A stretch of 64,000 nucleotides of DNA from Escherichia coli O157:H7 (GTDB lineage: Bacteria > Pseudomonadota > Gammaproteobacteria > Enterobacterales > Enterobacteriaceae): NCBI RefSeq assembly GCF_013167455.1, contig NZ_CP038328.1; one strand, 5' to 3'. The notes under the pieces are model-generated. The model was given only the letters and a program-made list of their open reading frames with translations. It searched no databases and was not told the DNA's origin. This document shows positions 30,344-40,414 of this stretch, piece by piece. The stretch's first letter is position 1. Each line of letters starts with the position of its first letter. Position numbers and translations under genes: made by a program.

Positions 30344-30369
30344 TTGGTGCCGAAGGCCGGACTCGAACC
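30344..30369. repeat. 26-bp direct repeat of the leuX 3-prime end (att-type repeat, island junction)
   Basis: TTGGTGCCGAAGGCCGGACTCGAACC is identical to 40414-40439, which lies inside the tRNA gene; flanks diverge on both sides. Confidence 0.8.
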
Positions 30370-36113: not shown

Positions 36114-36446
36114 TTGAGAACCGTCGAAATACTGCAATACACCTTACGCAAAGGCAGCGGTGCCGCTTTTCACGCCATAATGCAGGAAATCAGTGTTCCC
36201 CTACACCAAAGCCACGGGATCGATGTTGTTTCGTTTGGCAACTCGCTTGATGACCTGGATTGCTACTACTTGATTCGCGCCTTTGACAGCGCTAAAAGCA
36301 TGACTGCGGTTCTCGATGCTTTTTACGCAAGCGCAGACTGGCGCAGCGGCCCACGCGAAGACATCATTGGCAGCATAGAGAACTGCATTAAAACAGTGAT
36401 TAGCCTACCATCAGAAAGCGTGAAAGGGCTGCGGATGCAATCGTAA
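36114..36446 (+). CDS. Small protein (110 aa), NIPSNAP-like / dimeric alpha-beta-barrel candidate
   Basis: Track ORF with TTG start and GGAG ribosome-binding site; pattern VEILQYTLRKGSGAAF...YYLIRAFDS resembles NIPSNAP-type proteins. Confidence 0.4.
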   Translation: MRTVEILQYTLRKGSGAAFHAIMQEISVPLHQSHGIDVVSFGNSLDDLDCYYLIRAFDSAKSMTAVLDAFYASADWRSGPREDIIGSIENCIKTVISLPSESVKGLRMQS

Positions 36447-36567
36447 GTAATCAAGTGTATTAGCTTAGATTTGACCTAAACAGCTTTGTGCCAAAAGTGG
36501 ACTAGGAAAAGCCTAGCGATAAAGAGTTGAGTTTAATAACTACTAACTGAAATTTAATGGGTGATAT

Positions 36568-36945
36568 ATGAATTTAGATGAAGAATTTTACGAATTACAA
36601 AAACTCTTTGCTCAGAAGGATCTACTGACTGAGAAAAGACGCTCTAGTGGCGGCGGATTCATGGAAATTCTCTTGGTGAAGAGACAGAACATGAAGATAA
36701 AAATATATCAAGAAAAAGGACATCAACTTCCCCATATTCATATTGACTATGGAAAACAAGCGCATGCTGCCAGTTATGCCATACAATCAGGAGACCGCAT
36801 AGAGGGAGATTTACCTAAGAAATATGATAGTGATGTTTCGAGTTGGTTGGGGAGAAATCGTGATAAAATTTTAGAAATCTGGAATGCACTACAAGCTGGC
36901 GCACCTTATGAACCACTAATCGCAGAATTGACTGGCGGAGTGTGA
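36568..36945 (+). CDS. DUF4160-like small protein (125 aa)
   Basis: Track ORF; PHIHIDYGKQ motif typical of the DUF4160 family as I recall it. Confidence 0.5.
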   Translation: MNLDEEFYELQKLFAQKDLLTEKRRSSGGGFMEILLVKRQNMKIKIYQEKGHQLPHIHIDYGKQAHAASYAIQSGDRIEGDLPKKYDSDVSSWLGRNRDKILEIWNALQAGAPYEPLIAELTGGV

Positions 36946-37127
36946 CTAACTAAATAATTTTCCCCTAAAAAAATTCGATGTAGGAAAATATATATAAGTA
37001 AGAATCATGAGTGTCCGCTCCTCGCTCAAGGCGGACTGTTAGACTTGATTGTATGCTGTCAGAGAAAACCGTCAGATCAATTCTGTGAACCGCCCCGGGT
37101 TTCCTGGAGAGTGTTTTATCTGTGAAC

Positions 37128-38018
37128 TCAGGCTGCCAGATCATCGTTTCCGATGGAAGCATAATAAGCTTTTTCTGCTTCTGCCGGAGGAGTATGGCCC
37201 AGCCTTCCCAGCAATCGTCGATTGTTATACCAGTCCACCCACGTTAGTGTGGCCAGTTCCACTTCTGCACGGTTTTTCCAGCTCTTACGGTGTATTACCT
37301 CCGCTTTGTAAAGACCATTGATGCTCTCAGCCATCGCGTTGTCATACGAGTCGCCTGTACTCCCTGTTGATGCCAGTAATCCGGCTTCTTTTAGTCGCTC
37401 CGTATAGGCCAGTGACACATACTGAGAGCCTTTATCGCTGTGATGGATGGTGCCAGACGGACGACGGGCCCACAACGCCTGCTCCAGCGCATCCAGCACG
37501 AATGTCGTTTCCATAGACGATGAGACCCGCCACCCCACGATGTATCCGGCAAACACATCAATGATAAACGCCACATAGACGAAGCCCTGCCATGTGCTGA
37601 CGTAAGTAAAATCAGCCACCCACAGCTGGTCAGGTCGTTCTGCCACGAACTGACGGTTTACGCGGTCGCCTGCGGCAACGGCTTTCCGGCTGATGGTCGT
37701 ACGGACCTTTTTACCCCGGAGAACACCGGCAAGTCCCATAACCGCCATGAGACGTGCCACTGTACATCTGGCCACCCTGATTCCTTCCCGTAACAACTGA
37801 CGCCAGACTTTACGCACACCGTACACCTGATGATTTTCATCGTATACGCGCTGTATCTCTCTCTTCAGCCAGTCGTCGTGCTGCGCACGGGCACTGCGTT
37901 TATCCGGATGATGTCGCTGTTGCTGACAATGGTAATACGTTGACGGGGCAATATGCAGTTCGCTGCATACCGGTCCGACCCCGTACTGCTCACGCAGCTT
38001 ATCCAGCAGTGGCATCAT
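37128..38018 (-). CDS. IS629-like transposase OrfB (DDE catalytic domain)
   Basis: Track ORF; DDE region ...WVADFTYV...[11 protein letters not shown]...[16 protein letters not shown]. Confidence 0.85.
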
Positions 38019-38341
38019 TTTTTCCAGAGGCGGTCGAACTCCGCCTTCGCAAAATAAGCGGAAGCCTGGCGAAGGATATCGTTACTGCGGCGCAGTTCAC
38101 GATTTTCACGTTCCAGCTCTTTCAGACGCTGACGTTCAGCGCTGGTGAGCCCACCATCACCGCCCCCGGTATCCCGCTCATGCTGGCGAACCCAGACACG
38201 CAGAGTCTCCGGCGTACAGCCAATCTTTGGGGCAATGGAACAAATTGCCGCCCACTGTGAGTCATATTCATCCTGACTTTCCAGAACCATACGAATCGCC
38301 CGCTGACGGACTTCGGGGGAAAAACGAGTATTTTTAGTCAT
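38015..38341 (-). CDS. IS629-like transposase OrfA (108 aa)
   Basis: Track [25 protein letters not shown]...; HTH plus leucine zipper, matching IS629 OrfA from memory. Confidence 0.85.
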
Positions 38342-38392
38342 CCTGTTTACCTCTTTCTCAGGGAGTTTAGTCTCCAGGATTTCCGGGGCGGT

Positions 38393-40366
38393 TCACTTTC
38401 TTCGCAGCGCATCTCTTACAGCATCCAGCCCATCAGGAATGTTGAATCTCGCTATCTCGGGCAAAGAAAAATCAATCTTTTCGACAACCTCAACCATGTG
38501 AACCGGTTTTAAATCTTTGCTGTATCGCACTTCAGTTTCTGTTTTGCCTCGCACATGCCCAAGTAGCTGCCCACGCAGTTCCGAACTAACACCCTTCTCT
38601 TTAAGCAAAGTTGAAACAGAATGCCGGAAAGAGTGGAAAGATTTGCTTCTGTCTCTTTCAAGTTTTAATCGACCCGCAAGCAATGATTCATTGAACCATG
38701 CGGAAACCGGCCTACCATAGCCTTTGGTTTTATGTGGTTTAAGCTCGGGAAAAAGACGGTCATACCCGGCAGCTTTCAACGCATCCACATACTCGATAAA
38801 ACCGAGTTCAATCAGCGTAGAATGAACCGGAATCTTGCGGCGGGAATTGGCGTTTTTTAGTTTCTTTCCGTTTTCGCTATCGCTTTCAAGGTTCAGGTAA
38901 TAAACGCCGTCATCTGCCAGAACATCGTCCAGCATTAACTGTGCAATCTCGTTAACCCTTGCCCCCGTCATCAAGCCCAACAACGGCGCCCAATAGTGAA
39001 ACGGGCAATATTGATGGAATCGCCCTTGCGCATTACGTTCAACAGTTCCAGCGACAAACCACGGTTGCGAAAAAATTGCCTTAATTTCATGCGGTTCAAA
39101 TATGTCAGTGTGATCCTGCTCTCGCTCACCTTTGTCATCGGGAGGGAAAAAGTTGTCGCATGGCGATTTCAGAAACTTACCATCATCAACAGCCCACTCC
39201 ATTGCACCATAAAGGCCGTTGATATACTTTTTGACAGACTCTTCTGTCATCAGTTTATCGCCACATTCTGCCGCTTTGGCGATTAACTCATCCAGCGTCT
39301 TAACCCCGTGCTTACCTTTCATCAAATTACGGTTAGCAGGAATTGTGCGCAACTTGCTCTCATAAGCCCGGAGGAAATCACGGTCGAAATCTTCCAACTG
39401 AATATCCCCCATCACTTCAATCATCAAATCGAAGTAATAGCGAATATCGCGGAGCGCCGCTTCTGATACCTTGCCCTTACGTCGATGTTTCAAATACTCT
39501 TCACGAAGCCATGACAAGTTTTCATTGTAATGTTTGCGGTGAACATATTCATTAGCGATAACAGGAGCGACAAGAGGCACGGCAGGGTGAATGCTAACTG
39601 CTGGTGGCGTGGTCTTAACCAGCCATGTAAGTCGAAGGCCTTCAGCATGAACTTTGCTAATCAACAGGCTATCAGCAGTTATATCTACGCCGGGTAAATC
39701 GAAGAACCAACCTCCACTTTGGTTATCACCACTAGTTCGAAATGCAGCCTCTCCTTCGGATACTCCAGCGCTCAACAGACAATCTAAAGTATGCCGGGGA
39801 TTGAAGGGGCGGAGATAACCATTTGCGAAGCTCTCGATACCCAGCTCAAACGCGCTATTGAGAATGATGACTTCTTTAGGTTGATCCTTTTCATCATCAG
39901 ACTGTTTTTCTCGTTTTGCACCCGGTTCCCGCTCTACTGCATTAAATTCATCAACATAGAAACCGAACTGACCAGTCGCCAGCCAGAATACCGGGAGGTT
40001 ACGATTAACCACCTCTCGAATCAATTGCGATATAGGCAACTCGATTGATTGAGCAAAGTTAGAAAGCGAGATCATACCCTCACCAGCAAGCAGTGGGGCG
40101 CAGTCACTTAAAGTTCGATAATCCAATTGTTCATACTCTTGTAAGGTCTGATACCAGACCGCCAACAGGAGCGCGGACTTCTGCTTTGCTTCATGAAGAT
40201 CGTGAGTGCCTGTTGAAGTGTGAATCTCACACTGTCCTGCGTATCGACGAAAACGTTGGGGAACGCTAATGCGGACAACATAAATGCCGCTGGTTCGACG
40301 ATAGAGTTTATATCGCTGAGACATCGCCTCGTATACCCTTTTGTAAGAGGGGCTACGCGATTTCAA
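38393..40366 (-). CDS. Tyrosine recombinase / integrase with long N-terminal extension (657 aa), next to leuX
   Basis: Track ORF; catalytic signature TGARVNEI...HSFRHSVSTLL...LLGH...VRYSKDL. The stop codon is supplied by the IS629 terminus. Confidence 0.75.
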   Translation of the reverse strand: MKSRSPSYKRVYEAMSQRYKLYRRTSGIYVVRISVPQRFRRYAGQCEIHTSTGTHDLHEAKQKSALLLAVWYQTLQEYEQLDYRTLSDCAPLLAGEGMISLSNFAQSIELPISQLIREVVNRNLPVFWLATGQFGFYVDEFNAVEREPGAKREKQSDDEKDQPKEVIILNSAFELGIESFANGYLRPFNPRHTLDCLLSAGVSEGEAAFRTSGDNQSGGWFFDLPGVDITADSLLISKVHAEGLRLTWLVKTTPPAVSIHPAVPLVAPVIANEYVHRKHYNENLSWLREEYLKHRRKGKVSEAALRDIRYYFDLMIEVMGDIQLEDFDRDFLRAYESKLRTIPANRNLMKGKHGVKTLDELIAKAAECGDKLMTEESVKKYINGLYGAMEWAVDDGKFLKSPCDNFFPPDDKGEREQDHTDIFEPHEIKAIFSQPWFVAGTVERNAQGRFHQYCPFHYWAPLLGLMTGARVNEIAQLMLDDVLADDGVYYLNLESDSENGKKLKNANSRRKIPVHSTLIELGFIEYVDALKAAGYDRLFPELKPHKTKGYGRPVSAWFNESLLAGRLKLERDRSKSFHSFRHSVSTLLKEKGVSSELRGQLLGHVRGKTETEVRYSKDLKPVHMVEVVEKIDFSLPEIARFNIPDGLDAVRDALRRK

Positions 40367-40414
40367 GCAAGATTATGAATTAAATTGTTTTAAAACAATA
40401 GTTTAGATGAGTCT

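Follow-up and report, generated by a model that had tools for sequence, protein, structure and literature searches.

Why does the integrase gene of a genomic island in Escherichia coli O157:H7 end inside an insertion sequence (IS), on a stop codon that belongs to the IS, and why is the target-site duplication that should flank this IS missing? The question arises in the window, by which we mean the whole 64,000-nucleotide stretch of DNA analyzed here (contig NZ_CP038328.1). An initial annotation had proposed that the IS inserted within the integrase coding sequence or just at its end. Comparison with other complete genomes leads us to correct that reading, and we attribute both the lack of a duplication and the use of an IS-derived stop codon to a secondary deletion of 166 bp rather than to an insertion in the gene. 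The history that we propose has two steps, an IS629 insertion downstream of the gene and then a 166-bp IS-adjacent deletion in the window strain, and we give it a probability of roughly 80%.

The integrase gene and the IS629 copy beside it

The following features of the window are needed for the argument; coordinates are given with the strand, where one applies, and with the evidence for each assignment.

30344..30369, no strand: second copy of a 26-bp direct repeat, at the island end far from leuX (exact repeat search)
37083..37085, no strand: CTG, what remains (the left copy) of the original 3-bp target-site duplication (comparison with the empty site and the ancestral allele)
37086..38395, minus strand: IS629/IS1203 (IS3 family), 1310 bp, apparently intact (terminal inverted repeats, length, Pfam, RefSeq naming)
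38018..37128, minus strand: IS629 orfB, rve/DDE (Pfam rve, PF00665; HTH_21, PF13276; rve_3, PF13683)
38341..38015, minus strand: IS629 orfA, helix-turn-helix (Pfam HTH_Tnp_1, PF01527)
38393..38395, minus strand: TGA stop codon of the clipped integrase, formed by the terminal three bases of the IS and read as TCA on the plus strand (comparison of the open reading frame with the IS end)
38395..38396, no strand: deletion junction, between whose bases 166 bp of the ancestral allele (CDC#03-98 locus L003 2835-3000) are gone
38396..40366, minus strand: tyrosine recombinase of the SpLE5/leuX island, DUF6538 plus Phage_integrase (Pfam, RefSeq, C-terminal comparison)
40414..40439, no strand: first copy of the 26-bp direct repeat, TTGGTGCCGAAGGCCGGACTCGAACC, at the tRNA side of the island, where it covers the 3′ end of leuX (exact repeat search)
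40415..40499, minus strand: leuX, tRNA-Leu(CAA), the integration site of the island (ARAGORN; RefSeq places a tRNA-Leu beside ahr)

The two 26-bp repeats are perfect and intact, and the island between them measures about 10.07 kb. SpLE5 is 10,235 bp long in Sakai and FRIK804 (PMC7430833), and the size of the island in the window fits that length minus 166 bp. The DNA to the left of 30344 should belong to the neighbouring island SpLE6, extending past the start of the window. The island cargo near the IS, within 36114-36945, includes a NIPSNAP family gene (36114-36446) and a DUF4160 gene (36568-36945); syntenic loci (SS52 locus L005 1-1027) also encode a DUF1643 protein and a serine-recombinase-like protein annotated as ‘recombinase family protein’.

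With its stop codon, the integrase open reading frame occupies 38393-40366 on the minus strand. Its product contains the Pfam domains PF20172 (DUF6538) and PF00589 (Phage_integrase), both above their cut-offs; PF00589 scores 36.8 bits against a cut-off of 27.1 and covers residues 463-609. Read from a TTG at 40366, the protein has 657 aa, and from the RefSeq start, an in-frame ATG at 40324, it has 643 aa (649 aa in the native form). The catalytic tyrosine is Tyr615 of the 657-aa frame and is followed by 42 residues, not by the 38 or so first counted.

The element that abuts the 3′ end of this gene is indeed a copy of IS629. Its imperfect terminal inverted repeats begin with TGAACCGCCCCGG at both ends and match at 22 of their first 25 positions, and orfA and orfB overlap at 38015-38018, the layout of IS3-family elements whose two frames are joined by programmed -1 frameshifting. 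RefSeq labels the element in the FRIK1989 and CDC#03-98 loci ‘IS3-like element IS1203 family transposase, programmed frameshift’. The window copy has 0 mismatches over 1310 bp to that of CDC#03-98, and the copy in MD2019EC2705C4 is likewise identical to it. The IS and the integrase gene share an orientation (both lie on the minus strand), and the IS end at 38395 is the orfA-proximal end (IRL), which points at the 3′ end of the integrase gene. A query across complete genomes found 15-25 copies of IS629 per genome.

On the minus strand the junction reads ...CGA AGA AAG/TGA ACC GCC, where the slash, here and below, marks a boundary between joined sequences. The integrase stop codon is supplied by the IS terminus, as the initial annotation had recognized. 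Both IS629 termini start with TGA, so an immediate stop follows in one of three reading frames, and an in-frame stop supplied by the IS is unremarkable. It was also correctly noted that no clean target-site duplication is present, the 3-bp duplication being replaced by CTG on the left (...attCTG/) and CTT on the right (/CTTtct). The bases CT start both the deleted and the retained sequence at the junction, and the breakpoint is therefore ambiguous by 2 bp. The sequence shared at the endpoints is only 2 bp long, with a chance of about 1 in 16, and the shared CT could represent a 2-bp microhomology, a target preference of IS629, or chance. CT also begins the original target (CTG) and both of the later IS-retaining junctions (CTTTCT and CTTACA).

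Proposed history: insertion downstream of the gene and a later deletion

The integrase gene is found at an identity of at least 99% in 232 of 5426 complete E. coli genomes, and at about 85% in a further 366. Comparison with an IS-free allele, which the initial annotation had suggested, was possible in FHI_NMBU_11, where the site is empty, has a single CTG, and retains the native integrase stop codon. The empty site reads caattCTGagctaatg in this genome, with a match in 93 complete genomes, and, with more flanking sequence, caattCTGagctaatgc. The ancestral IS-carrying allele reads caattCTG[IS]CTGagctaatg, with a clean CTG duplication on both sides of the IS and with 145 bp between the IS and the intact integrase stop upstream of it. 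A single CTG at the empty site, set against CTG[IS]CTG in the occupied one, proves the 3-bp duplication.

The left junction, ...attCTG/TGAACC, is identical in the window, CDC#03-98, FRIK1989, and MD2019EC2705C4. In CDC#03-98, where it reads caattCTG/TGAACC, the other side of the IS reads GGTTCA/CTGagctaatgc... and continues for 166 bp before the sequence equivalent to window position 38396 is reached. On either side of this 166-bp gap the window matches CDC#03-98 at 100% identity; the left-hand stretch, which contains the IS, is 2834 bp long, and the right-hand stretch 4971 bp. Because the IS terminus in the window is intact and the flanks are identical save for the missing 166 bp, the comparison points to an IS-adjacent deletion. 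Such a deletion explains both peculiarities of the junction at once: the stop codon is borrowed, and the target-site duplication is missing because DNA at this end of the IS was lost after the insertion.

The history that we propose runs as follows. In a strain ancestral to part of the O157:H7 lineage, one IS629 copy entered intergenic DNA 145 bp past the stop codon of the SpLE5 integrase gene and duplicated its 3-bp target, CTG; the comparison of empty and occupied alleles shows this first step. In the window strain, 166 bp lying just outside the IRL end were then lost, with the IS terminus kept. This second event took the right-hand CTG, the 145-bp spacer with a hairpin that it contained, the native TGA, and the last six codons of the gene (RGKQTG). 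The IS starts with TGA, by chance in frame with what was left, and the protein now ends ...DALRRK.

The product of the second step is seen by sequence comparison, and we infer its chemistry from the literature. Deletions of this type are ascribed to the IS3-family transposase, acting aberrantly or intramolecularly. In O157 the IS-excision enhancer IEE may contribute; this protein joins ends at microhomologies, and the breakpoints here have 2 bp (CT) in common. IEE is very common in O157, in which IS629 accounts for many small deletions (PMC9943667), and IEE together with the transposase yields both excisions and IS-adjacent deletions, with sizes between a few nucleotides and over 40 kb (PMC9943667; review 10.1101/2023.06.07.543989). 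IS3 itself deletes outward from its inverted repeat, with the IS either preserved or removed and with endpoint homology of 6 bp or less (PMC8860574). The route of the second step cannot be read from its product, as an adjacent deletion, recombination between two IS copies, and end-joining at CT all give the same sequence.

Recombination between two IS copies is the alternative that survives best, although we consider it unlikely. A second IS629 in the same orientation would have inserted in the 3′ end of the integrase gene, duplicating CTT, and homologous recombination would have removed one IS together with the 166 bp. The CTT of the right flank could be half of this second 3-bp duplication, the predicted product, CTG[IS]CTTtcttcg, is what is seen, and IS629 is both multicopy and active in O157 (PMC3271280). 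However, we saw no genome in which 166 bp separate two IS copies at this locus, each record for the left junction, the empty site, and the other two deletion alleles having one junction match, and the route needs two rare events where one otherwise suffices. Moreover, the retained sequence of a sister allele also begins with CT (CTTACA), which a microhomology or an end-proximal process fits equally well. The downstream insertion followed by a single IS-adjacent deletion is our preferred history.

Alleles of the site among complete genomes

The states of the site were counted with 54-bp junction probes (27+27) against the 5426 complete genomes. A 200-bp junction query could not split the alleles, as the IS and integrase pieces of a match got joined across the 166 bp. 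The counts obtained with the short probes are as follows.

Left IS junction, any right-hand state: 127 genomes
Undeleted ancestral allele, 166 bp present: 111 genomes, among them Sakai, EDL933, and Xuzhou21
Window junction, 166-bp deletion: 1 genome, FRIK1989 (bovine, USA)
IS kept, 185 bp lost: 14 genomes, MD2019EC2705C4 among them
IS and about 190 bp both gone, caattct/acagcatcc: 29 genomes, including TW14359, EC4115, SS17, and SS52
Empty intact site: 93 genomes

The 127 genomes with the left junction are made up of the 111 undeleted ones, the 14 with the 185-bp deletion, the one with the 166-bp deletion, and one more. Altogether, 225 genomes were assigned to an allele, counting exact empty-site matches only, vs the 232 that carry the integrase gene at the identity given above. 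The site thus presents an allelic series of five states: empty; IS with its duplication; two deletions that retain the IS; and one deletion that also lacks it. This series could serve as a lineage marker within O157:H7.

Every deletion lies at the IRL end of the IS, the end that faces the integrase gene. Three independent truncations of the 3′ end of the integrase gene, all extending from the IRL end of one IS629 copy, are found in about 44 of the roughly 230 O157 genomes that carry the gene. In the 185-bp deletion allele the integrase reads ...DAV and continues for 16 IS-encoded residues, the IS being entered in another reading frame (MD2019EC2705C4 locus L006 2990-3030), and in the IS-less allele that lost about 190 bp it ends ...DAVELI (SS52 locus L005 2950-3030). 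The retained right flanks of the three deletion alleles start no more than 25 bp apart, in the 3′ end of the integrase gene.

The occupied site was known before as the polymorphic site IS.23 of IS629, in SpLE5; Sakai and EDL933 are scored as having it, and EC4115 and TW14359 as lacking it (PMC3271280). The insertion site is the same, and the presence and absence scores of Rump et al. (2011, PMC3271280) agree with our census. Those scores came from PCR, and the flanking deletions and integrase truncations are not described there (PMC3271280).

FRIK1989, the one complete genome with the window junction, matches the window over 6 kb except for one base, at 37410. It probably represents the same isolate or a sister of it, so that as independent confirmation of the exact junction it is weak. 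The differing position lies in IS629 orfB, with C in the window and T in the RefSeq assembly of FRIK1989. As the IS copies of CDC#03-98 and MD2019EC2705C4 are identical to that of the window, the window may represent a sister isolate or a different version of the assembly. Found in 1 of 5426 complete genomes, the 166-bp allele is rare and apparently undescribed: in the papers covered, among which Ooka et al. (2009) is represented by the summary in PMC9943667, we found no description of the allele or of its effect on the 3′ end of the integrase gene. A paper on FRIK strains (PMC7430833) mentions neither FRIK1989 nor the 166-bp deletion.

The census also bears on the two remaining explanations. 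An assembly or consensus error might have dropped 166 bp beside a multicopy repeat, and the junction does border a repeat of which each genome has 15-25 copies, and only one complete genome shares it. Nevertheless, such an error is very improbable. At the IS terminus the junction is correct to the base, the RefSeq complete genome of FRIK1989 also has it, and junctions of the same class, with another breakpoint, are found in 14 genomes that come from several countries and were assembled independently. Even less credible is an independent insertion of IS629 straight into the integrase coding sequence or at its end, as first proposed: an intact IS terminus does abut the coding sequence, but such an insertion would have left the last codons and the 145-bp spacer beyond the IS, with a 3-bp duplication, whereas the 166 bp are missing from the locus, the duplication is absent, and the far boundary of the IS is the ...caattCTG junction known from the ancestral downstream insertion, a junction shared by 127 genomes, of which 111 carry the IS and its CTG duplication 145 bp past an intact stop.

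Consequences of the deletion and comparison with known systems

The native end of the integrase was established from three loci that keep the gene’s own stop codon: CDC#03-98 (100% identical), FHI_NMBU_11 (98.5%, without the IS), and ATCC 25922 (85%, without the IS). In all three, the integrase TGA lies 21 bp past the equivalent of window position 38396. The native protein has the C-terminus ...DAVRDALRRKRGKQTG and the window protein ends ...DAVRDALRRK, so that the six C-terminal residues RGKQTG (644-649) are absent from the window: the stop follows ...RRKRGKQTG in the native form and ...RRK here. The enzyme had been described as either intact or slightly clipped; it is slightly clipped and not intact, as RGKQTG is present in both the IS-free and the ancestral alleles.

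Alignment to homologues, the check proposed with the initial annotation, bears out the loss of C-terminal residues. Rather than ending at the same residue, the homologues run 1-6 residues further and have their own stop codons. Most of them (60-87% identity) end ...RRKRGKQ(T/S)x. Several proteins from Yersinia, Pectobacterium, Enterobacter, and Pantoea have the natural ends ...RRKRD, ...RRKRG, ...RRKRC, and ...LIKR, which lie 1-2 residues beyond the end of the window protein. Among 24 homologues (649-aa numbering), R456 is invariant and H564, R567, H590, and Y601 are nearly so; the conserved Arg, the His-x-x-Arg, the His, and the nucleophilic Tyr are all retained in the window protein, upstream of the clipped residues. 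Because these catalytic positions are kept and some natural homologues are only 1-2 residues longer, the integrase clipped by six residues is probably still functional. Impairment is more likely for the alleles of other strains that lack 13 residues.

Structure prediction adds little to this, beyond suggesting that the last helix is poorly defined at its end, which the clipped residues form. For the native protein, AlphaFold2 gives a model of only moderate confidence (mean pLDDT 70.5, pTM 0.40); it places a terminal helix at residues 630-647 and has a pLDDT of 55 in its last block. A PDB profile search with the integrase found zero relatives.

The deletion also removed sequence that may have ended transcription of the integrase gene. 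The feature concerned lies within the deleted 166 bp, 32 nt past the native integrase stop and on the integrase strand.

CDC#03-98 locus L003 2919-2948, minus strand: terminator-like hairpin with a 13-bp stem, a 4-nt loop, and a U6AUU tail

In the window, no terminator-like site is left between the integrase stop codon and IS629 orfA, whose ATG lies 51 nt after the new stop. With no recognizable terminator before orfA, read-through from the integrase gene into the IS629 transposase genes is plausible, judging from the sequence. A hybrid promoter was sought at the new junction, and no promoter-like site was found there.

These effects raise the question of whether the truncations are favoured, either through immobilization of SpLE5 or through read-through from the integrase promoter into the transposase genes that raises local IS activity. 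We regard it as quite improbable that the truncations are other than neutral in either of these ways. The natural C-terminal truncations of the integrase, one of six residues and one of 13 residues with two different replacement tails, offer material for testing the excision of SpLE5.

The SpLE5 integrase shares its domain pair, PF00589 with an N-terminal DUF6538, with the tyrosine recombinases of tRNA-targeting genomic islands, and like theirs its gene lies beside a tRNA gene (leuX), in an island of about 10 kb bounded by 26-bp repeats. It differs from them in being unusually long, at about 650 aa, and in having no sequence-detectable relative in the PDB.

The deletions can be compared with an experimental IS3 series (PMC8860574), in which deletions extend from the inverted repeat into a neighbouring gene. 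The three natural alleles described here reproduce the product classes of that series, and an upstream gene is likewise brought beside the IS genes with no terminator in between. The IS3 deletions were obtained on a plasmid with induced transposase and IEE, whereas those at SpLE5 are chromosomal and natural and create no new host-gene operon.

A further parallel is with the small structural polymorphisms linked to IS629 and the IS-adjacent deletions promoted by IEE in O157:H7 itself (Ooka et al., 2009, PMID 19564451; Kusumoto et al., 2011, PMID 21224843; both as summarized in PMC9943667), which involve the same element in the same host lineage. As in those cases, the missing DNA at SpLE5 begins right at an IS end and only one of the two duplication copies is left; the sequence shared at the breakpoint here is 2 bp. 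The event in the window is an ordinary example of this well-known class of IS629-associated micro-deletion in O157:H7 and adds nothing conceptually new to IS biology; its sister alleles, like the deletions summarized there, either keep the IS or lose it together with flanking DNA (PMC9943667).
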